Notes under the pieces: generated by a model | Seen by the model: only the letters and a program-made list of their open reading frames with translations | What the model was told of the DNA's origin: nothing | The model's database searches: none | Translations under genes and position numbers: made by a program | In this document: in pieces, positions 1 to 8,455 of the stretch | Numbering within the stretch: position 1 is the first letter of the stretch | Layout of the letters: every line of letters begins with the position of its first letter | Origin: a virus | Lineage: Duplodnaviria; Heunggongvirae; Uroviricota; Caudoviricetes | Length of the DNA stretch: 8,455 bases | IMG/VR virus record: IMGVR_UViG_2648501730_000017 | Strand: one strand, 5' to 3'

Positions 1-1545
1 TCACAGATAAAACACTCTCCAGGAAACCCGGGGCGGTTCAACCATATATTTGAGAGCACTTATCGCCTGCTGGGCGGATATTACTTTCATTAAAGGATAG
101 TGTTTAAAAACAATGCCATTCATAAAATAGATATCACAGGTTTTATTATCCGTATTAATTATGATTTTTTCGAATGTTTTATAGGCAAGTGTACGGCATA
201 ACTCTCGTCCATTTTTACTGGTTAAGTCAATAGCATAAAAATCACTGAATGAATTTACACCTTTACTCTTCAAAGTTTTCAATGATACCGAAGCCCTTCT
301 TAATTCCTTATCTAATAGTCTTATTTTCTCTGCTATAGCGGTAACTTCAGGCGCGACAGACAATGCAACGATTAAATTATTAATTTTCATCTGAAGCTCA
401 ATAATTTTTAACTCTAAAGTTTCATTAGCATCTTTCTTGTTTTCAACTGGTTGAATTTTGCTACAATTAAAAAGCAATTCATTAATGATATTATAATCAA
501 CCAAATCTCTTTTTATTGATGGCCTGTCACATCGATGTAATCTTCTCATCGGACAAACATAATAGCCATGCAAACTTCCAGATACCGCATGAACAATCAT
601 GGTATTACCACAAGCCTCACACTTCATAACTGTTCGAAGTAGATTTATTAGCATAGGATTCTTGCTACTATTGCTAATACCAAAAGGTGCCAACCGAATT
701 TCCTGTACAGCGTAAAACAAATCATCTGATATGACTCTGGGATAATAGCCAGCGATTTCACTTATCCCTTTCCCTCTTGCACGATATGAAGGTACGCATA
801 TACCTATCAGAGCTTTATTCGCTAATAATTTTTCAATTACAGAAGGTCCCCATGCACTTTCTTTTCCTGAGAAATTCTTTACAGCATGATCATTTAAATA
901 CTTGGCTATTGCATTCAATGAGCGCCTTTCCATCCTGAGTTTAAAAATTAGCTCAATAGTTTTCACCCTGTCGGGGTCTGGAACAAAAGCCGTTCTTTTG
1001 TCATCTAAGGAGAGCCATCTCGGACAAGACGCCGTCATAATCGTACCTGATTCCAGTGCATCCTGCCGTTTTTTCTTCCATGATAATTTAACCCGACTTG
1101 ACTTTATCTCGCTTTCTTCATTTGCCCTTTGTGCTATAAGTATGGCTTTTATTAATGAATATGGCTCATTCAAAGAGTCAATGTTATAGACTGTATTGTC
1201 GCAAAGAGTTATAACATCAATACCGTGATTCAAAATCAATTTCAGACGTTCAATCGCTTCACCGACTTTTTCTCTTGAAAGTCTGTCCAGACTTTCAACT
1301 AACAATGTAGTTCCTGGCAATATATAACCATGCTCTATAGCATCTAAAAATTCCGAAAAAGCTCCTGATTGTGCATGCTTTCCTTTGAATGCACTTAATC
1401 CTAAATCTTCATATGTTATGGTATCAAGATAATAATCACTATTTACCTTTAACCATTCAGCAATAAGTCTTCTCTGTCGGTTTAATGAGTCACCAGACAT
1501 CTGACCTGGTGATGAAAATCGCATATATGCTATGGCTTTTTTCAT
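1..1545 (-). CDS. ybcK: Large serine recombinase (resolvase-type catalytic domain, recombinase domain, Cys-rich zinc ribbon); complete 514 aa, stop codon at positions 1-3
   Basis: Supplied translation starts MKKAIAYMRFSSPGQ...SLNRQRR, a serine-recombinase catalytic motif; 514 aa length and the Cys cluster CEACGN...YYVCPMRRLHRCDRP fit large serine recombinases. Position next to emrE matches the emrE-ybcK arrangement of DLP12 as I recall it. Gene is visibly AT-rich relative to the lambda-like genes. Confidence 0.8.
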   Translation of the reverse strand: MKKAIAYMRFSSPGQMSGDSLNRQRRLIAEWLKVNSDYYLDTITYEDLGLSAFKGKHAQSGAFSEFLDAIEHGYILPGTTLLVESLDRLSREKVGEAIERLKLILNHGIDVITLCDNTVYNIDSLNEPYSLIKAILIAQRANEESEIKSSRVKLSWKKKRQDALESGTIMTASCPRWLSLDDKRTAFVPDPDRVKTIELIFKLRMERRSLNAIAKYLNDHAVKNFSGKESAWGPSVIEKLLANKALIGICVPSYRARGKGISEIAGYYPRVISDDLFYAVQEIRLAPFGISNSSKNPMLINLLRTVMKCEACGNTMIVHAVSGSLHGYYVCPMRRLHRCDRPSIKRDLVDYNIINELLFNCSKIQPVENKKDANETLELKIIELQMKINNLIVALSVAPEVTAIAEKIRLLDKELRRASVSLKTLKSKGVNSFSDFYAIDLTSKNGRELCRTLAYKTFEKIIINTDNKTCDIYFMNGIVFKHYPLMKVISAQQAISALKYMVEPPRVSWRVFYL

Positions 1546-1730
1546 GGTGACACCTGCTAACGTATGCTTTTATAAACCTTAGTGGTGGGATATAATTTTT
1601 GTTTAATTTTTATTTAAAAAGACAATTAAGGTCACATTATCTTGAATATACAACAATAATCGTATTGCAATTTTCTTACGCCATAATCTTGAAAGCACAA
1701 AAGAACACATAAAAAAAATAAAGACATTAA

Positions 1731-1771
1731 CAAAAAGCATAAAACGAGGCTCATATAAATATAAGAGCCTC
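1731..1771 (-). terminator. Putative intrinsic terminator about 30 nt downstream of emrE
   Basis: Inverted repeat GAGGCTC (1746-1752) / GAGCCTC (1765-1771) with a 12-nt loop; on the minus strand the hairpin is followed by GTTTTATGCTTTTTG (T-rich). Confidence 0.5.
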
Positions 1772-1802
1772 CATATTTTAGTCGTTTAGAAACAAATTAT
1801 TT

Positions 1803-2135
1803 TTAATGTGGTGTGCTTCGTGACAATAGATTAATAACCAACACACCGGCACAAATTAACATCATGCCTATAATGGCTGGCAGGTCCAGCCGTTGGCCGA
1901 AAAGTCCCCATGACAGTAAGCTAATCAGGACAATACCGACTCCTGACCAGATAGCATAAGCAATCCCTGTAGGAATATAAGCCAGCGTCTGAGCTAATAA
2001 CCAGAATGATGCACAATAACAAATAATTGTACCAACAGATGGCCATAACCGTGTAAAACCTTCTGAAAACTTCATTAAGGTTGTACCAATGACCTCTGCA
2101 AGTATTGCACCACCAAGATAAATATAAGGGTTCAT
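1803..2135 (-). CDS. emrE: SMR-family multidrug efflux transporter EmrE (110 aa)
   Basis: Translation from the internal Met reads MNPYIYLGGAILAEVIGTTLMKFSEGF...LLSRSTPH, matching E. coli EmrE as recalled, including the conserved membrane Glu in helix 1. AGGAAAG ribosome-binding site 8-14 nt upstream of this ATG; the 128-aa ORF in the track is an upstream extension. Confidence 0.9.
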   Translation of the reverse strand: MNPYIYLGGAILAEVIGTTLMKFSEGFTRLWPSVGTIICYCASFWLLAQTLAYIPTGIAYAIWSGVGIVLISLLSWGLFGQRLDLPAIIGMMLICAGVLVINLLSRSTPH

Positions 2136-2202
2136 AGCATATTCTTTCCTGTTCAAACTGGAGAGAATTGTACTACAGTTTGAACTCAACTCACCTGTTT
2201 CA

Positions 2203-2504
2203 TCATTGTGTACCCATTGATGTTCTTTTATATACCCTCAATACCCGTTTCATCGCGGCACTCTGGCGACACTCCTTAAAAATCAGATTCGTGCTCACCT
2301 TTCCTTCCCGTTCTTCTCTGGTAGCGAACCGGTAATACACCGTTCGCCAGACCTTACCATCAACGACCAGGATTCCTGCCCGGCCATTTTAGCCGCAGCC
2401 TGATTTATGCTGGTTACGGTTGCGCCTGTTACCGCGGCAACGTCCTGCGCACAGAAGTTCTTATGAGTCCCCAGGTAATGAATAATTGCCTCTTTGCCCG
2501 TCAT
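2203..2504 (-). pseudogene. ren: ren (lambda Ren-like) inactivated by a frameshift; first ~41 codons intact, remainder readable in another frame
   Basis: ORF 2295-2504 begins MTGKEAIIHYLGTH...VTGATVTSINQAAAKMA as lambda Ren does, then diverges. Shifting frame near 2385 (GCCGGGCAGG where lambda, as recalled, has GCCCGGGCAGG) restores Ren-like ...KVWRTVYYRFATREEREGK...KECRQSAAMKRVL. Start overlaps the P stop by 4 nt as in lambda. Confidence 0.6.
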
Positions 2505-3202
2505 ACACTTGCTCCTTTCAGCCCAAACTTAGCTTTGATTTCTGCGATCTTCGCCAGAGCCTGTGCACGATTTAGAGGTCTACCGCCCATGGCAGGAAGT
2601 TGTTTTACTGGTTCAGGTATAGCCTCACCACGGTTAATTCGCGCGATCATACAGGACAGTTCATCGGCAGCCTTGCGCCGTAATTCCGCGTCAGTCAGCG
2701 CATTGGCTCGCATGTTCTGGTACAGGTTGGTAACCAGCCAGTAGTGCGCGTTTGATTTCCACGGATAAGACTCTGCATCCGGATACAGCCCGCGCTTCCG
2801 GCAATACTCGTAAACCATATCAACCAGCTCGCTGGCGTTTGGCAGCCCGGCGGTAACGGATGCTTCTTCCCGGCACCAGGCGACAAACTGCCCGGGTGAT
2901 GGCAGGAATGGTCGATTCTGCCGACGGGCTACGCGCATTCCTGCGTTAACCTGTTCCATTGTGGTGATCCCGTTTTCCCGGAAAGCCAGAACCCACTGGC
3001 GGCGGATTTCGTTCAGTTCATTCTGGTCACGGTTAGCCAGGCTCGCCGGGAAAGTTGCCAGTAACTGGCTGAACACACCGTTGATGATCTGCGCTACCTG
3101 CTGTACCTGTGGCTTTTCGTCGTACTGTTCCGGCATGTTGTTGGCGATCCGACGCATCTGCTCACAGTCAAAGTTAACCATTTGTGCGGCGATGTTTTTC
3201 AT
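2501..3202 (-). CDS. P: Lambda-type replication protein P (DnaB helicase loader), 233 aa
   Basis: Translation MKNIAAQMVNFD..EQMRRIANNMPEQYDEKPQVQQVAQIING...AKFGLKGASV is near-identical over its full length to lambda P as recalled; same 233-aa length; start overlaps the O stop. Confidence 0.9.
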   Translation of the reverse strand: MKNIAAQMVNFDCEQMRRIANNMPEQYDEKPQVQQVAQIINGVFSQLLATFPASLANRDQNELNEIRRQWVLAFRENGITTMEQVNAGMRVARRQNRPFLPSPGQFVAWCREEASVTAGLPNASELVDMVYEYCRKRGLYPDAESYPWKSNAHYWLVTNLYQNMRANALTDAELRRKAADELSCMIARINRGEAIPEPVKQLPAMGGRPLNRAQALAKIAEIKAKFGLKGASV

Positions 3203-4128
3203 AAATCCACCCCATAAATCCAGTCAGTGTTTGTCAGGTCCAGTTTTGATTTTCCGGCTGTCACTCCAGCCTGTTGCTTGTTACGGTTGATTTCGAGTTG
3301 GGTCCACTTGTCACGGAGTTTGGCCGGACTTAGCACGTTACCGGACCAGAAGTTGTCCTGGCATGCCCAGCGGAACAGCACGCACATGTCGCGGTGGTTA
3401 CGTCCGTCACGTTCACGCATCAGGCGGATATCGTTAGCCCACCCTGCAAAATTCGGTTTTCTGGCTGATGGCGCGATGGTCTTCACCATGTCAAACATCC
3501 ACTCTGCGGCGGTCAGGTCTTCTGCTGTCCCCCACTTGCTGCCGCTCTGAATTGCAGCATCCGGTTTCACCACAGGAAGATCGTTTTCTGGTTGGTCAGA
3601 GGATTCGCCAGAATTCTCGGACGAAAAAGGTTTTATATTGTCTTTTGTTAGTTTGTCTTTTGTGTTTACCTGATTCGGGTAAACGCCTTTACCTGATTTG
3701 GGTAAACTTTTTTTACCTGATTCAGGTAAATTTACCTCTTTCAGGTAAACTTTATTTTTCTTACCTGATTCGGGTAATGTTGACCATTCACTGACCACAT
3801 TATTAATGCCGGTATTCCGCCCGCTCTGAATAAAAATCCCACGCTTTACCAGAACACTTTTTGCAGCAGAACACTTGTGCGGCAATATCCCGGTTAATTC
3901 GGAAAGTTGCTCGTTGCTAACCCAATCCAGTTTTTTATTAAAGCCATATGTTTTGCGCATGACAGCCAGAAAGACCAGAAGCTGGTGCTGTGTTAATCCG
4001 GCCAGCATCACAGCTTCCAGCAACTCATTTGCAATGCGCGTATAACCATCATCGAGATCTGCCACGCGCGGCTCCTTTTGTGCCGCATCCGGCACTGGAA
4101 AATTGAATATCTCAGCAGTGTTTGCCAT
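3199..4128 (-). CDS. O: Lambda-type replication initiator O (309 aa): N-terminal iteron-binding domain diverged from lambda, C-terminal P-interacting domain lambda-like
   Basis: C-terminal half ...ESSDQPENDL.VVKPDAAIQSGSKWGTAEDLTAAEWMFDMVKTIAPSARKPNFAGWANDIRLMRERDGRNHRDMCVLFRWACQDNFWSGNVLSPAKLRDKWTQLEINRNKQQAGVTA...LDLTNTDWIYGVDL matches lambda O as recalled. N-terminus from the internal Met (MANTAEIFNF...VADLDDGY) aligns with the lambda O start and has a GGGAGG ribosome-binding site 5 nt upstream; the 339-aa track ORF is an upstream extension. Confidence 0.85.
   Translation of the reverse strand: MANTAEIFNFPVPDAAQKEPRVADLDDGYTRIANELLEAVMLAGLTQHQLLVFLAVMRKTYGFNKKLDWVSNEQLSELTGILPHKCSAAKSVLVKRGIFIQSGRNTGINNVVSEWSTLPESGKKNKVYLKEVNLPESGKKSLPKSGKGVYPNQVNTKDKLTKDNIKPFSSENSGESSDQPENDLPVVKPDAAIQSGSKWGTAEDLTAAEWMFDMVKTIAPSARKPNFAGWANDIRLMRERDGRNHRDMCVLFRWACQDNFWSGNVLSPAKLRDKWTQLEINRNKQQAGVTAGKSKLDLTNTDWIYGVDL
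3667..3779. repeat. Replication origin iterons: five ~18-bp direct repeats inside O, flanked by an AT-rich stretch (about 3620-3666)
   Basis: Read directly: TACCTGATTCGGGTAAAC (3667-3684), TACCTGATTTGGGTAAAC (3690-3707), TACCTGATTCAGGTAAAT (3714-3731), TACCTCTTTCAGGTAAAC (3733-3750), TACCTGATTCGGGTAATG (3762-3779). Each has TACC...GGTA internal dyad symmetry. Location inside O next to an AT-rich tract mirrors lambda ori. Confidence 0.8.
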
Positions 4129-4214
4129 AATTCCTCCCGCAATGAGTGTGTTACGATTTGCACCTGAAAGTCGGTTCTGTTCCAGCAGACCGGCTTTCGC
4201 CATTTCTGAACCTG

Positions 4215-4754
4215 TCATATCGCCCCCAGCATGGTAGTAACCATCGCCATCAATGGACCAGCCAGATCTGGGTCCACACGAAACATCGACACAATACCTT
4301 CACTAATTTCCTTCAGTTTCTGGTGGCGTGGTGCGTTGAGAATGACAGCCTGTTTTGCCTCACTGAGTTCCTTTTCCATTTCAGCCAACCTAGCCATGAA
4401 GCTATCCTGCTCAACCAGGTAACCGCGATATTCCAGCGGTAGTACCGCCAGAATTGCCGGGGTCAGTTCACGCACGTTATTTCGGTATTTTTCAGAATCG
4501 AATTTGTTATCGAGGAAGCGGAACAGCTTCTGGCGTGCACGGCTGACATCATCAGGGAAATCGATGGTGCCGCCGCCCTGCTCCCGATACTCATTCACAA
4601 TGAGTGTGGCAACGACATCCTGATTATCTACAGCCGACCAGGCGCGGACGGCATCACGGATTTTTTCGTGGCCTGGCACCTGTTTTGTTTGAGAACGATT
4701 TATCACCGCAGTCGGGCTAAATCCGCTAGTCTGTTGGTATGTAAGTGGTTGCAT
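4215..4754 (-). CDS. YdaT-like protein (about 179 aa) in the cII position; probable CII functional analogue
   Basis: Sits between the cro-like gene and O where lambda has cII, but is about twice the length of lambda CII. GGAG ribosome-binding site 7 nt upstream of the ATG. Family assignment is from recalled Rac / CP-933P ydaS-ydaT arrangements, not from a search. Confidence 0.5.
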   Translation of the reverse strand: MQPLTYQQTSGFSPTAVINRSQTKQVPGHEKIRDAVRAWSAVDNQDVVATLIVNEYREQGGGTIDFPDDVSRARQKLFRFLDNKFDSEKYRNNVRELTPAILAVLPLEYRGYLVEQDSFMARLAEMEKELSEAKQAVILNAPRHQKLKEISEGIVSMFRVDPDLAGPLMAMVTTMLGAI

Positions 4755-4798
4755 AATTGACTCCTTTAGTTTGAATTGACTGTTAAGTTGATTGCTTA

Positions 4799-4811
4799 TT
4801 GTTAAAGAGCG
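4799..4811 (-). promoter_or_regulatory. boxA-like element in the nutR position, just downstream of the cro-like stop
   Basis: Minus-strand sequence CGCTCTTTAACAATAAGCAATCA contains GCTCTTTAACAAT, matching the E. coli rrn boxA (TGCTCTTTAACAATTTATCA, as recalled) at 13 consecutive positions; placement matches lambda nutR. Confidence 0.5.
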
Positions 4812-4823
4812 TGAAATGGAAAT

Positions 4824-5054
4824 TTAAGCTGCGTTCTTTTCGGTGTGTGGAAACAACTTCGGAAGATCCGGGCGAATCTGGTATGCCTTCACTACTCCAC
4901 CAGTAGCCGTAACAATGCTGCCGACATGTTCAGGGGATACCTTTGCTTTGTTGTGAAGCCACTTATAGACGGCCTGCTGTGAAACTTCGCAAGCAGCGCC
5001 CAGTTTCTTTTGTGAACCAACGATATTGATCGCTGTTTTGATAGCTGGGTTCAT
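4824..5054 (-). CDS. Cro-like small HTH regulator (76 aa), first gene of the rightward early operon
   Basis: Small protein transcribed divergently from the cI-like repressor; GGAGG ribosome-binding site 5 nt upstream of the ATG; the segment QKKLGAACEVSQQAVYKWL is helix-turn-helix-like. Confidence 0.6.
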   Translation of the reverse strand: MNPAIKTAINIVGSQKKLGAACEVSQQAVYKWLHNKAKVSPEHVGSIVTATGGVVKAYQIRPDLPKLFPHTEKNAA

Positions 5055-5081: not shown

Positions 5082-5110
5082 AGATTAAAACTATGGTTGT
5101 TTTTAGTCAA
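5082..5110 (-). promoter_or_regulatory. pR-like promoter: -35 TTGACT, 17-nt spacer, -10 TAATCT, with a 17-bp operator filling the spacer
   Basis: Reverse complement of 5082-5110 reads TTGACT-AAAAACAACCATAGTTT-TAATCT, about 25 nt upstream of the cro-like ATG. Confidence 0.5.
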
Positions 5111-5150
5111 CAACCATTTTCGTTTGATGGAATAAAACCTTGGTTGTACA
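5087..5150. promoter_or_regulatory. OR-like tripartite operator region between the cro-like and cI-like genes
   Basis: Three related sites: 5087-5103 AAAACTATGGTTGTTTT (strongest, in the pR spacer), 5107-5123 TCAACAACCATTTTCGT (weaker), 5134-5150 AAAACCTTGGTTGTACA (next to the cI-like start). Shared half-site AAAACAAC / GTTGTTTT. Confidence 0.5.
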
Positions 5151-5158
5151 TTTGGACT

Positions 5159-5848
5159 ATGAAAACAACACTCTCAGAAAGACTTAAAGAAGCCAGATTA
5201 GCGCGAGGCCTTACACAAAAGGCGCTTGGGGATTTGGTCGGGGTTAGCCAGGCTGCTATTCAGAAAATCGAAACAGGGAAAGCTAATCAAACAACTAAAA
5301 TCGTGGAGATCGCGAACGCTTTGGGTGTGCGCGCAGAATGGTTATCTTCTGGCGTTGGAAATATGTCAGACAGTACAGTGCAACCAATACAATCAACTGT
5401 CAGCCATTCCAAATACTTCAAGATTGACGTTCTTGATATAGAAGTCAGTGCTGGGCCGGGAGTCATCAACCGTGAGTTTGTAGAAGTTCTACGCTCGGTT
5501 GAGTACTCGTTTGACGATGCTCGTCACATGTTCGATGGTAGGAAGGCGGAAAATATCCGCATCATTAACGTGCGTGGTGACAGCATGTCAGGAACGATCG
5601 AACCAGGTGATCTGCTGTTCGTTGATATCACAGTTAAATCTTTCGACGGTGATGGTATCTATGCGTTTCTGTACGACGACACAGCCCATGTAAAGCGCCT
5701 GCAAATGATGAAGGATAAGCTGCTGGTCATCTCTGATAACAAAAGCTACTCACCGTGGGACCCGATCGAGAAAGACGAGATGAACCGGGTGTTCATCTTC
5801 GGTAAGGTTATTGGGAGCATGCCGCAGACATATAGGAAGCATGGGTAG
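5159..5848 (+). CDS. cI-like prophage repressor (229 aa): N-terminal HTH-XRE domain plus C-terminal S24 LexA-like autopeptidase domain
   Basis: From the internal Met: MKTTLSERLKEARLARGLTQKALGDLVGVSQAAIQKIETGK (HTH), then GDSMSGTIEPGDLLFVD with a downstream HVKRL Lys, the Ser/Lys dyad of S24 peptidases. No Shine-Dalgarno before 5159, and a weak TTGATG / TACATT promoter would start transcription near the ATG (leaderless, as lambda cI from pRM). The 5093 start would overlap operator 1. Confidence 0.8.
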   Translation: MKTTLSERLKEARLARGLTQKALGDLVGVSQAAIQKIETGKANQTTKIVEIANALGVRAEWLSSGVGNMSDSTVQPIQSTVSHSKYFKIDVLDIEVSAGPGVINREFVEVLRSVEYSFDDARHMFDGRKAENIRIINVRGDSMSGTIEPGDLLFVDITVKSFDGDGIYAFLYDDTAHVKRLQMMKDKLLVISDNKSYSPWDPIEKDEMNRVFIFGKVIGSMPQTYRKHG

Positions 5849-7027: not shown

Positions 7028-8455
7028 ATGAGTACAGCACTCGCAACGCTGGCAGGGAAGCTGGCTGAACGTGTCGGCATGGATTCTGTCGACCCACAGG
7101 AACTGATCACCACTCTTCGCCAGACGGCATTTAAAGGTGATGCCAGCGATGCGCAGTTCATCGCATTGCTGATCGTCGCCAACCAGTACGGCCTTAATCC
7201 GTGGACGAAAGAAATTTACGCCTTCCCTGATAAGCAGAACGGCATTGTTCCGGTGGTGGGCGTTGATGGCTGGTCCCGCATCATCAATGAAAACCAGCAG
7301 TTTGATGGCATGAACTTTGAGCAGGACAATGAATCCTGTACATGCCGGATTTACCGCAAGGACCGTAATCATCCGATCTGCGTTACCGAATGGATGGAGT
7401 TGCACGACAAGCGAAAAGCAGAACTCTGGCGAGTAGAAAAGCTAGGGGATTTACCTGATGTCACTTTTGAAGAGGCCTGCCTAAGATGGCTTGAGGAAAA
7501 AGCTGATAAAAAATCTCTCGATTCAGATAAAAGCCGGATTGAGTTCTGGCTTGAACATTTTGAGGGTATAAGGCTTAAAGATATCTCGGAGGCAAAGATT
7601 TACTCTGCTGTAAGCAGAATGCATAACAGAAAGACGAAAGAAATATGGAAACAGAAAGTTCAGGCCGCCATCAGGAAAGGTAAAGAACCGCCTGTTTATG
7701 AACCAAAGCCAGTATCAACTCAGACAAAGGCAAAGCATCTTGCCATGATAAAGGCCATTCTCCGTGCTGCAGAACGCGACTGGAAGTGGCTGGAAAAAGC
7801 GCCTGTCATCAAGATACCAGCGGTCAGAAACAAGCGAGTCAGATGGCTGGAAAAGGAGGAAGCAAAACGCCTTATTGATGAGTGCCCCGAACCACTGAAA
7901 TCTGTCGTCAAGTTTGCGCTGGCAACTGGTCTGAGAAAGTCGAACATCATAAATCTGGAATGGCAACAAATCGACATGCAGCGACGAGTTGCCTGGGTGA
8001 ATCCAGAAGAGAGCAAATCAAACCGCGCCATTGGTGTGGCGCTGAACGATACCGCCTGTAAAGTGTTGCGTGATCAAATAGGCAAGCATCACAAATGGGT
8101 GTTTGTACATACCAAGGCGGCTAAGCGAGCAGATGGAACATCAACGCCTGCGGTCAGGAAGATGCGCATCGACAGCAAGACATCATGGCTATCAGCTTGT
8201 CGTCGTGCAGGAATTGAAGATTTCCGTTTCCATGACCTCAGACACACCTGGGCAAGCTGGCTGATTCAGTCAGGCGTCCCATTATCAGTGCTTCAGGAAA
8301 TGGGCGGATGGGAGTCCATAGAAATGGTTCGTAGGTATGCTCACCTTGCGCCTAATCATTTGACAGAGCATGCGAGGAAAATAGACGACATTTTTGGTGA
8401 TAATGTCCCAAATATGTCCCACTCTGGAATTATGGAGGATATAAAGAAGGCGTAA
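7028..8455 (+). CDS. In-frame fusion: Bet (lambda Red-beta) residues 1-123 joined to a tyrosine integrase (IntD / P21-family like) lacking roughly its first 35 residues; probable deletion product that removed the bet 3' end, exo, xis and the int 5' end
   Basis: Residues 1-123 ([122 protein letters not shown]) match lambda Bet as recalled. From about nt 7397 the protein switches to integrase sequence (ELHDK.KAE.WRV.KLG..PD.TFE.AC.RWLEEKA.KKSLD.DKSRI.FWL..F...), with the catalytic Arg in TGLRKSN, HDLRHTW and the Tyr in MVRRYAHL. Gam stop to bet start geometry (aggtataaaacggATG) is as in lambda. Confidence 0.8.

Follow-up and report, generated by a model that had tools for sequence, protein, structure and literature searches.

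Gene organization of the early-right operon

The window, by which we mean the whole stretch of 8,455 nucleotides analysed (IMG/VR record IMGVR_UViG_2648501730_000017, Caudoviricetes), comes from a lambda-like E. coli prophage and carries on its minus strand, in one orientation, a cro-like gene, a YdaT/CII-like gene, O, P, a frameshifted ren and emrE. The preliminary description had proposed that emrE is co-oriented with the whole pR operon, and the gene calls, all on the minus strand, agree with it. The repressor gene lies on the plus strand and is divergent from the pR operon. The features of this region are as follows.

5159-5848, plus strand: cI-like repressor with HTH and S24 peptidase domains (PF00717, PF01381)
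5082-5117, minus strand: candidate pR, TTGACT (5110-5105), 17-nt spacer, TAATCT (5087-5082), from sequence reading
4824-5054, minus strand: cro-like gene (YdaS/Cro HTH), first gene of the rightward operon (PF15943, 4e-17; PF14549; PHROG 35)
4760-4890, minus strand: C-rich, G-poor stretch by composition, C/G up to 3.0
4215-4754, minus strand: YdaT/CII-like gene (PF06254, 8.5e-30; PHROG 163, CII-like)
3199-4218, minus strand: replication initiator O (PF04492, 1e-33)
2501-3202, minus strand: helicase loader P (PF06992, 9e-62)

The translated repressor has an Ala-Gly site (VSAGPG) and the motifs GDSM and VKRL, and the same 690-nt gene in a 100%-identical locus (L002) is labelled S24 family peptidase in RefSeq. 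Judged from the sequence, cleavage of the repressor would be RecA-dependent. A palindrome, ATGGTTGTT-N7-AACAACCAT at 5093-5117, overlaps the candidate pR and is likely an operator; pR itself is called a candidate because its -10 box is weak (3/6). The terminator scan also called 5093-5117, on both strands, and this call was rejected as being the operator palindrome at pR.

The C-rich stretch includes a boxA-like CGCTCTTTAACAA at 4811-4799. In lambda, rutA, NutR and rutB are found directly past cro, and on this model 4760-4890 is a candidate Rho-dependent site similar to tR1/nutR. Among the ORFs between the repressor and kil, examined for an N-like antiterminator, none had a PHROG match, and the window as a whole showed no N-like gene. 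The stop of P and the start of ren overlap (ATGA). The window also carries a bet-int fusion, and its prophage is probably unable to excise.

The ren pseudogene and the emrE cassette

Downstream of P, the following features were identified.

2203-2504, minus strand: ren pseudogene (PHROG 142; alignment to intact Ren)
2213-2229, minus strand: 17-nt junction, without a match in lambda ren or in the chromosomal emrE island (blastn boundaries)
1795-2212, minus strand: emrE cassette of 418 bp, with a 77-nt leader, the ORF and 8 nt past the stop (match to the chromosomal island)
2167-2194, minus strand: candidate emrE promoter, GTGAGT (2194-2189), 16-nt spacer, TACAAT (2172-2167) (promoter scoring)
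2151-2185, minus strand: 13-nt inverted repeat around TACAAT, 12/13 complementary, 9-nt loop (fold and repeat analysis)
1803-2135, minus strand: emrE, SMR-family multidrug/H+ antiporter of 110 aa (PF00893, 3e-35, residues 3-94)

Compared with the intact 100-aa Ren of Lambda_4C10 and Perceval, ren of the window has lost one nucleotide between 2383 and 2382. This deletion splits the ORF into two frames, with residues 1-41 in 2504-2295 (premature stop at 2297-2295) and the remainder in 2340-2203, so the frameshift reported before is real; RefSeq also flags ren of L002 as "frameshifted". Lambda Ren is an intact ORF of about 96-100 aa coupled to P, and the split ORF here falls outside this definition. 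Among 122 loci having enough upstream sequence, 102 had an intact 100-aa Ren and four had the same deletion. Homology with lambda-type ren ends at 2230 (blastn), and the last ren codons and the stop fall in the junction and the cassette. Between the ren stop (2203) and the emrE ATG (2135) there are 67 nt, close to the 70 nt estimated earlier. Sequence of ren type is immediately 5' of the emrE leader in 120 of the 125 fetched leader-bearing loci, so that the juxtaposition of ren and emrE in the window is not due to chance.

The emrE product begins with MNPYIYLGGAILAEVIG and is named EmrE in RefSeq (WP_001070451.1). Its length, PF00893 match and Glu14 assign it to the EmrE subtype of SMR transporters, which have about 110 aa and four transmembrane helices. 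The cassette (2212-1795) shows 91.4% identity with the fliE-emrE-ybcL-ybcM island, which is present in the chromosome of many E. coli with the same 418-bp cassette and leader. Its GC content is 0.40, against 0.52 in ren and 0.54 in P. The Shine-Dalgarno sequence of emrE (AGGA, 2150-2147) is located in this chromosomally shared cassette, past the end of ren homology, and so the ribosome-binding site does not lie within ren-derived sequence as the preliminary description had assumed.

Two promoters could be proposed near emrE by promoter scoring. One is the cassette promoter listed above. The other is a hybrid formed by the junction and upstream ren, with ATGAAA (2253-2248) and TATAAA-TAAAAG (2232-2225). 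Both are weak sigma-70 matches with scores of about 7.5, and a stricter consensus scan gave no minus-strand promoter in the emrE upstream region. The constancy of TACAAT and of the inverted-repeat core in the fetched loci is by construction, because they are inside the 27-nt exact search pattern; outside this pattern, two fetched chromosomal copies kept the -35 GTGAGT, with two base differences from -59 to -1. The literature did not yield a mapped transcription start for emrE.

The inverted repeat at 2151-2185, which has no U-run past it, may serve as an operator or, in read-through transcripts, as a 5'-UTR hairpin. Rfam cmscan of the whole window with E up to 1 revealed no riboswitch or leader RNA (the sole match was a chance rliD elsewhere), which argues against control of emrE by a guanidine-type riboswitch. 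No LexA box (CTGT-N8-ACAG, up to one mismatch) was detected in 2100-2600, which speaks against emrE being a LexA-regulated SOS gene; in the leader inverted repeat CTG and CAG are 15 nt apart, not 10 as in a LexA box. The sole perfect CTGT-N8-ACAG, at 5669-5684, falls within the repressor gene; its centre is GC-rich, and it probably arose by chance. A mini-ORF ATG-CTA-TGA (2140-2132) overlapping the emrE start was discarded as not conserved, since its ATG is ATT in 15 fetched loci.

Terminators and Rho

On the minus strand from about 5090 to 1803, no terminator was detected by a consensus scan or by a more liberal hairpin-plus-U scan. Terminator prediction over 2136-2500 on the minus strand, suggested earlier as a check, gave only a loose stem internal to ren. 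This candidate (hairpin plus U, 2332-2288) was rejected, being a long-range stem of -9.8 kcal/mol in sequence common to lambda ren. The scans and folding therefore bear out the earlier reading that no strong terminator lies between P and emrE and that the first good hairpin is past emrE. The features there are as follows.

1732-1771, minus strand: intrinsic terminator, GAGGCTC (1771-1765) and GAGCCTC (1752-1746), stem 1771-1746 (fold energy)
1-1545, minus strand: ybcK, large serine recombinase (PF00239, PF07508, PF13408)

The terminator stem is followed by UUUUAUGCUUUUU (UUUU AUGC UUUUU), with a fold energy of -13.6 kcal/mol and z = -4.2. Across seven variants 94.8% of the cells were paired, with one compensatory AU-to-CG pair, and at this position two loci had another hairpin, likewise with a U-run. 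The terminator is part of the ybcK block, not of the emrE cassette: a block of ybcK and an AT-rich spacer (1546-1794, with a ylcJ remnant and the terminator) is inserted directly past the emrE stop. The extra block in K-12, compared with the chromosomal emrE island, is 2083 bp.

The site at 1771-1732 is the first intrinsic terminator downstream of pR. Because it is also the first one past P and ren, it occupies the functional position of lambda tR2. In lambda, tR2 (AGGCCTGC...GCAGGCCT, then a U-run) is between ren and ninB, directly past ren, where the window diverges. The two terminators have no sequence similarity, and that of the window is about 420 nt further downstream owing to the emrE cassette.

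It might be supposed that the ren frameshift uncouples emrE from pR by Rho-dependent polarity, as translation that ends at 2297-2295 leaves 159 nt untranslated ahead of emrE, against 67 nt otherwise. However, RNA from ren to emrE folds into stable stems, and with much G, little C (C/G 0.38-0.9) and few YC dimers its composition is the reverse of that of a rut site. This stretch would therefore be a poor Rho substrate despite the frameshift. We consider such polarity very unlikely, and it was rejected on base composition.

Comparison with related phages and prophage remnants

In DLP12 of K-12 (renD pseudogene, emrE, ylcJ, ybcK), the gene order, ren/emrE junction, leader and terminator hairpin are as in the window, with 98.7% identity over 2415-1500. 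The argU-side attachment next to fimZ is alike in DLP12 and in the window's 100%-identical relative. An IS3 interrupts K-12 ren at the equivalent of 2414/2415, whereas ren of the window has its 1-nt deletion. K-12 has lost cro, YdaT, O and the greater part of P and so has no pR operon upstream, while the window keeps the repressor, pR, the cro-like and YdaT-like genes, O and P. The remnant in O157:H7 has lost its immunity region, and in both strains emrE is intact without pR. It means that the P-ren-emrE or ren-emrE module persists in remnants of K-12 and O157:H7 lacking pR and the immunity region.

Perceval (of strain LF82), Lambda_4C10 and 4A7 are active temperate phages of the genus Bievrevirus, and their YdaT-O-P-ren-emrE-ybcK segment shows 96.7% identity with the window over 4755-1500. 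Unlike the window, they have an intact 100-aa Ren and complete recombination genes, and their immunity region differs from that of the window in the repressor N-terminus and cro. The chromosomal island differs from the window in lacking upstream phage genes, the ybcK block and the hairpin terminator; ybcL-ybcM is directly past emrE.

Relatives without emrE but with the same pR-O-P-ren backbone also exist (L008). P-ren is common to the window, lambda and L008, and divergence begins at 2230 for lambda and at 2239 for L008. Phages that carry emrE have the entire block in common with the window.

Expression of emrE in a repressed lysogen

Published RNA-seq of LF82 carrying Perceval (PMC9928086, S4 table) gave 16-163 FPKM for emrE, 0-2.7 for P, 0-51 for ren and 70-270 for CI. 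The prophage in these data is a relative (96.7% identical over 4755-1500) whose immunity region differs and whose ren is intact, and gene-level counts such as these do not resolve the start position. After reanalysis of the table, the read density of emrE per kb was 9- to 90-fold that of O plus P, and the genes from cro to P were at background in all five LF82 conditions. As P did not exceed 2.7 FPKM while CI was expressed and emrE reached 16-163 FPKM, emrE of Perceval is transcribed without pR. The authors of that study called EmrE a moron of Perceval.

These results bear on the strictest form of the pR idea, in which emrE has no effective promoter and is a distal gene of the pR operon, so that efflux depends on SOS cleavage of the repressor. 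The co-orientation, the 67-nt gap, the lack of intrinsic terminators all the way from pR to the end of emrE and the S24 autocleavage motifs of the repressor are all compatible with it. But it is contradicted for the close relative by the emrE density in the repressed Perceval lysogen. In addition, the K-12 and O157:H7 remnants keep emrE without pR, with K-12 emrE functional in paraquat evolution experiments, and chromosomal emrE has the same leader and expression pattern with no phage operon upstream. We regard this form as extremely unlikely.

The Perceval data require a promoter downstream of P. The ren reads were 5-27 times the O plus P level, and since they exceed the P reads, some transcription begins in or near ren; the cassette promoter may therefore not be dominant. 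Read density rose again, by 3- to 12-fold, from ren to emrE in samples from culture medium (B1, B6) and in MB1, while in macrophage samples ren was 30-70% of emrE FPKM. The earlier statement that any emrE promoter lies within ren-derived sequence is thus partly right: ren at 0-51 FPKM against at most 2.7 for P speaks for it, but the proximal 77 nt with the candidate promoter is not derived from ren.

A fuller version of this statement would be that the hybrid promoter made by the insertion (2253-2248 and 2232-2225), or a start internal to ren (TTGATG-18-TGTATT, 2363-2334), drives emrE and TACAAT is unused, and then "promoter in ren-derived sequence" would be essentially right. The ren reads in Perceval, including their share in macrophages, are consistent with it; these candidates score on a par with the cassette promoter, 279 nt from the 3' part of ren are still present before emrE in K-12, and "(renD-emrE)" is given as an operon in the text of PMC3946193. 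The additional step-up from ren to emrE in B1, B6 and MB1 argues against it, as does chromosomal emrE, which is expressed at the same level and profile without any ren sequence. Moreover, for one paraquat-evolved K-12 line a 9-bp insertion was predicted 39 bp before emrE; the authors took it for IS1, and it adjoins the TACAAT box, as expected if TACAAT is the -10. This version is possible but doubtful.

The chromosomal and phage copies of emrE in LF82 have similar expression levels and profiles. They co-vary across conditions with r = 0.92 after normalization and have only the 77-nt leader in common upstream. The correlation of 0.92 could partly stem from shared global effects, and that of raw counts (r = 0.98) was discarded because it was inflated by library size.

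The drop in density per kb from emrE to ybcK in Perceval was 21-25-fold in B1, 4-5-fold in B6, LB and MB1, and 1.1-1.5-fold in MB6.

emrE as a moron

The moron concept is that of Hendrix and colleagues (review PMC3594210). Morons are extra genes between conserved phage genes that close relatives lack, with deviant composition and their own promoter and terminator, and they are expressed from a repressed prophage. The lambda morons bor and lom are located in the late region. The emrE gene sits between conserved phage genes with patchy presence (lambda and L008 are without it), its base composition deviates (GC 0.40 vs 0.52-0.54), it is transcribed from the repressed prophage in the 96.7%-identical Perceval, and a terminator is directly downstream (1771-1732), though this is part of the ybcK block. 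Unlike bor and lom, emrE is a gene of the early-right operon: it is found where ren meets nin, reads in the direction of pR and precedes the first terminator.

So the best explanation, which we hold with good confidence, is that emrE is a self-contained moron cassette in the 3' end of ren, transcribed without pR, and that any read-through from pR is additive. The 418-bp AT-rich cassette would have recombined into the ren 3' end exactly at the position of lambda tR2, bringing the leader, the ribosome-binding site and probably a weak sigma-70 promoter of its own. In the repressed lysogen emrE is transcribed from one or more promoters downstream of P, one probably within the cassette, with a second, condition-dependent start in or near ren. 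Since no terminator-like site was found from P to emrE, transcripts begun at a derepressed pR should also cross emrE if they get beyond the likely Rho site after cro. They would stop at least partly at 1771-1732, and the terminator would presumably have some efficiency in the source strain too. The pR read-through would be an additional input and not the main route of expression.

This arrangement is a classical phage moron and has been described before, as renD-emrE of DLP12 and as EmrE of Perceval and Lambda_4C10; in Perceval, Lambda_4C10 and 4A7 it was described as an accessory gene or moron transcribed in the lysogen. Our result refines the picture of a known moron in a modest way and does not reveal a new kind of system. 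EmrE is a model small multidrug transporter whose in vivo regulation is poorly described, and the analysis shows that its gene travels with its own leader, precedes a terminator equivalent to tR2 and is transcribed in repressed lysogens.

Possible read-through from pR after DNA damage

As emrE is co-oriented with pR without an intervening terminator, it has the arrangement of an early-right operon gene, and SOS-induced read-through from pR into emrE is structurally plausible. Searches of the literature and of datasets gave no emrE data after mitomycin or SOS induction, and none for an induced prophage of this type; the idea of SOS coupling is easily testable.

In its strong form, DNA damage would raise emrE mRNA several-fold in lysogens with the complete operon, and the cells would for a time pump out more paraquat, quaternary ammonium compounds or ethidium. 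The position of emrE before the tR2-equivalent terminator, with no terminator upstream, agrees with this, and RNA from P to emrE would be a poor Rho substrate. In paraquat evolution experiments with K-12, selection favoured extra copies of the region or an IS1 inserted upstream, raising expression, and basal emrE expression limits paraquat tolerance; an extra transcriptional input could therefore alter the phenotype. On the other hand, the C-rich tR1-like site with boxA lies past cro and an N-like gene was not found in the window. Induction also activates the toxic kil, O and P, so that induced cells may gain nothing, and membrane insertion of the pump takes time. We think that a read-through of this strength is unlikely.

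It is quite improbable, in our estimate, that in lineages with an SOS-cleavable repressor, pR, O, P and ren, DNA damage (e.g. by fluoroquinolones) raises emrE above its basal promoter. If it were so, emrE would close the run of genes ahead of the first early-right intrinsic terminator, and cationic toxic compounds would be exported more strongly under a prophage-wired, damage-induced control. The SOS-emrE circuit could then be a selected remnant function in prophages that are defective in excision, as the present one with its bet-int fusion probably is. YdaT-O-P-ren-emrE was contiguous in 5 of 30 rows of the spread sample, and three of these five also matched the cro/pR end of the query.

Gene organization around emrE

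The window covers the early region of a lambdoid E. coli prophage in the DLP12 family. Here emrE, a classical moron cassette (an independent cargo transcription unit), occupies the ren/tR2 boundary and is expressed while the prophage is repressed. This layout is already known: the K-12 annotation has it as renD-emrE, and it has been described for the phages Perceval and Lambda_4C10. Together with a possible SOS link it is no new kind of system. The preliminary description placed emrE behind a frameshifted ren, co-oriented with the pR operon, and proposed that efflux could be coupled to prophage induction. The observation is confirmed, with the cro-like gene, the YdaT-like gene, O, P, ren and emrE all on the minus strand, and the interpretation is supported in part.

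5159-5848, plus strand: repressor with HTH and S24-peptidase domains
5054-4824, minus strand: YdaS/Cro-like gene
4754-4215, minus strand: YdaT/CII-like gene
4218-3199, minus strand: O
3202-2501, minus strand: P
2504-2203, minus strand: ren
2135-1803, minus strand: emrE
1545-1, minus strand: ybcK, serine recombinase
plus strand: kil, gam and a bet-int fusion

Between pR and emrE, identity with E. coli Z1323HEC0422 is 100%; the prophage of that strain adjoins tRNA-Arg and fimZ, the DLP12 site. P and ren overlap (ATGA). Compared with the gene for the intact 100-aa Ren in Lambda_4C10 and Perceval, ren lacks one base between 2383 and 2382; this frameshift leaves the first 41 residues in one frame and the last 45 in another. 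The distance from the ren stop to the emrE ATG is 67 nt, close to the first estimate of about 70 nt.

The bet-int fusion (7028-8455, plus strand) is one 475-aa ORF with a Bet/RecT N-terminal part (PF03837, aa 24-118) in frame with a tyrosine integrase (PF00589, aa 272-443) that seemingly lacks its own N-terminal end. Exo and xis are absent from the window, and full bet and exo are present in L002, a relative 100% identical at pR-emrE. The prophage is probably excision-defective.

Borders of the cassette

Homology to lambda-type ren runs from 2600 to 2230 (93.3%) and ends there. The chromosomal fliE-emrE-ybcL-ybcM island of many E. coli matches only 2212-1795 (91.4%), which is the emrE ORF with 77 nt upstream and 8 nt downstream, and the 17 nt between (2229-2213) are matched by neither. 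From these mosaic borders it follows that the cassette, and not ren as first supposed, supplies the proximal leader with the ribosome-binding site AGGA (2150-2147); we also judge wrong the view that any emrE promoter lies in ren-derived sequence. The emrE-linked ren variant ends in ...RVYKRTSMGTQ*, its final codons and stop being encoded by junction/cassette sequence. GC content changes from 0.54 in P and 0.52 in ren to 0.40 in the cassette and 0.28 in the spacer.

In lambda, the tR2 hairpin AGGCCTGC...GCAGGCCT, followed by UUUUUAUUU, lies directly 3' of ren, and therefore the cassette sits exactly at the ren/tR2 boundary. An emrE-less relative (L008) that shares repressor, cro, YdaT, O, P and ren diverges at 2239, so the ren 3' end is a module boundary with alternative cargo. 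On the other side, comparison of the K-12 DLP12 locus with the chromosomal island, where emrE and ybcL are contiguous, showed a 2083-bp block inserted straight after the emrE stop, containing the terminator hairpin, ylcJ and ybcK (window 1546-1794; K-12 locus L005, 5622-7704). The serine recombinase gene ybcK may belong to a small mobile element.

Terminators

As first reported, no terminator was found between P and emrE: a consensus scan and a more liberal hairpin-plus-U scan gave no terminator-like site on the minus strand from pR to the emrE stop. The first convincing hairpin does lie after emrE, GAGGCTC (1771-1765) with GAGCCTC (1752-1746), then UUUUAUGCUUUUU (-13.6 kcal/mol, z = -4.2). 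Over seven sequence variants 94.8% of cells are paired; one pair changes from AU to CG, and four one-sided changes stay paired in every variant. At the same position directly 3' of emrE, another GC-rich hairpin (GCCCGCATAAGTGCGGGC, then a U-run) is present in two IMG/VR loci. A terminator seems to be kept there even after sequence replacement.

Within the AT-rich spacer is the best sigma-70 match of the window (1569-1596, plus strand; TTTATA-16-TATAAT, 10/12), directed into emrE in antisense. The hairpin could be a bidirectional terminator. At 5093-5117 a 9-bp palindrome, ATGGTTGTT-N7-AACAACCAT, overlaps the -35 (TTGACT) of the presumed pR; the scan called it a terminator on both strands, and it is most likely the repressor operator instead.

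Promoter candidates and the emrE leader

Simple weight-matrix scoring gave two comparable candidate promoters:

GTGAGT (2194-2189), 16-nt spacer, TACAAT (2172-2167), minus strand: within the cassette
ATGAAA (2253-2248), TATAAA/TAAAAG (2232-2225), minus strand: across the ren/cassette junction

Around TACAAT there is a 13-nt inverted repeat (2151-2185, minus strand; arms 2185-2173 and 2163-2151, 12/13 complementary, 9-nt loop). That TACAAT and the repeat core are constant among the fetched loci is uninformative, because the exact search pattern included them. All phage-type leader variants read CAGTTTGAAC in the 3' arm, which the pattern did not cover, and the chromosomal copy shows a single mismatch there; both 10-bp repeat arms are exact in 5/5 phage-type loci tested. 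The repeat could be an operator for some regulator or a 5'-UTR hairpin. In transcripts from upstream it would fold just 5' of the Shine-Dalgarno, and no U-run follows it.

In a paraquat-evolved K-12 line, a caller-predicted 9-bp insertion 39 bp upstream of emrE, read by its authors as IS1, falls about 2 nt upstream of TACAAT, and in a second study IS1 upstream of emrE raised expression. Both cases are consistent with TACAAT as the -10. Another paper gives "(renD-emrE)" as an operon and assigns to the emrE-ybcK spacer H-NS as well as a sigma-70 promoter that is constitutive (PMC3946193).

Overlapping the start codon of emrE is a two-codon mini-ORF (ATG CTA TGA; 2132-2140, minus strand) that is better spaced from the Shine-Dalgarno than emrE itself. 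It is probably non-functional, because its ATG is missing in 15 of the fetched loci.

Expression in a Perceval lysogen

Over 4755-1500 the window shares 96.7% identity with Perceval, a phage of E. coli LF82 whose immunity is different because it has another repressor N-terminus and another cro. The FPKM values below were normalised from the stranded RNA-seq counts given for five conditions in PMC9928086 (S4 table).

Expression of Perceval genes in LF82 (FPKM)
CI: 70-270
P: 0-2.7
ren: 0-51
emrE: 16-163
ybcK: 2.6-51

The cro-like gene, the YdaT-like gene and O were at background (<=31 reads per kb), and the early genes stayed there even in macrophages. Read density per kb of emrE was 9- to 90-fold that of O plus P, which speaks against the implied dependence on pR. 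In LF82 emrE did not track P (r = 0.23). Its two emrE copies, phage and chromosomal, share only the 77-nt leader upstream, have similar expression levels and co-vary after normalisation (r = 0.92). It means that emrE transcription starts downstream of P, independently of pR. Some of this transcription begins within or close to ren, so ren does contribute as had been proposed, with ren at 0- to 27-fold O plus P per kb (5-27-fold without LB samples), and there is a further step-up at the cassette.

Density per kb was lower at ybcK than at emrE by 21-25-fold in B1 samples, by 4-5-fold in B6, LB and MB1, and by only 1.1-1.5-fold in MB6. In macrophage samples ren reached 30-50 FPKM while P was <=2.7, and ren followed ybcK (r = 0.90), not P. 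This pattern points to a start within or close to ren that depends on the conditions, to H-NS silencing being relieved in the AT-rich block, or to both. EmrE was counted among the Perceval morons induced in DMEM (PMC9928086), and an earlier survey found EmrE in two lambda-like gut phages.

Possible read-through from pR and a possible SOS link

Judged from the layout, it would be structurally possible for pR transcripts to reach emrE. Rho-dependent polarity through the ren frameshift is unlikely, because the RNA from the premature ren stop to emrE is G-rich (C/G 0.38-0.9). By analogy with lambda, the likeliest obstacle lies earlier, in the stretch 4890-4760 (minus strand), the cro-like 3' end and pre-YdaT spacer, which is C-rich and G-poor (C/G up to 3.0) and resembles the rutA/NutR/rutB order just after lambda cro. 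It holds a near-consensus boxA, CGCTCTTTAACAA (4811-4799, minus strand), which agrees with the ribosomal boxA consensus in 12/13 positions. No obvious boxB hairpin was seen near this boxA, and no N-like ORF within the window, including between repressor and kil. Attenuation at such a site would affect the whole operon, emrE together with O and P.

Derepression by SOS is plausible, since the repressor has the Ala-Gly, Ser and Lys motifs seen in S24 repressors that cleave themselves. No LexA box was found at emrE, nor did the literature yield transcript measurements from induced prophages of this kind. We consider an SOS-linked read-through transcript into emrE somewhat probable, and a meaningful phenotype from it quite improbable. 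Such read-through is a reasonable addition to the moron reading.

Distribution in other genomes

Searching with the emrE leader matched at least 120 IMG/VR prophage contigs and a few genomes. Among the matches listed, ren-type sequence lies upstream of the leader in 120/125 loci; where enough upstream sequence was present (122 loci), ren is an intact 100-aa gene in 102, has the 1-nt deletion in 4 (window included) and is of the K-12 IS3 type in 5. At least 80% of the P/ren-emrE-ybcK query was present in 1382/5426 complete E. coli genomes, the remainder having mostly emrE-only or ren/P-only matches; one fetched emrE-only match sits at the fliE locus. Outside prophages, many E. coli have another emrE paralogue (~91% identical), flanked by fliE and ybcL-ybcM, for example at 4078-4410 of the E41-1 locus (L003). 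K-12 derivatives carry IS3 in ren at the equivalent of 2414/2415 and are without cro-O. In an O157:H7 remnant at icd, P-ren-emrE-ybcK is intact but the immunity region is gone.
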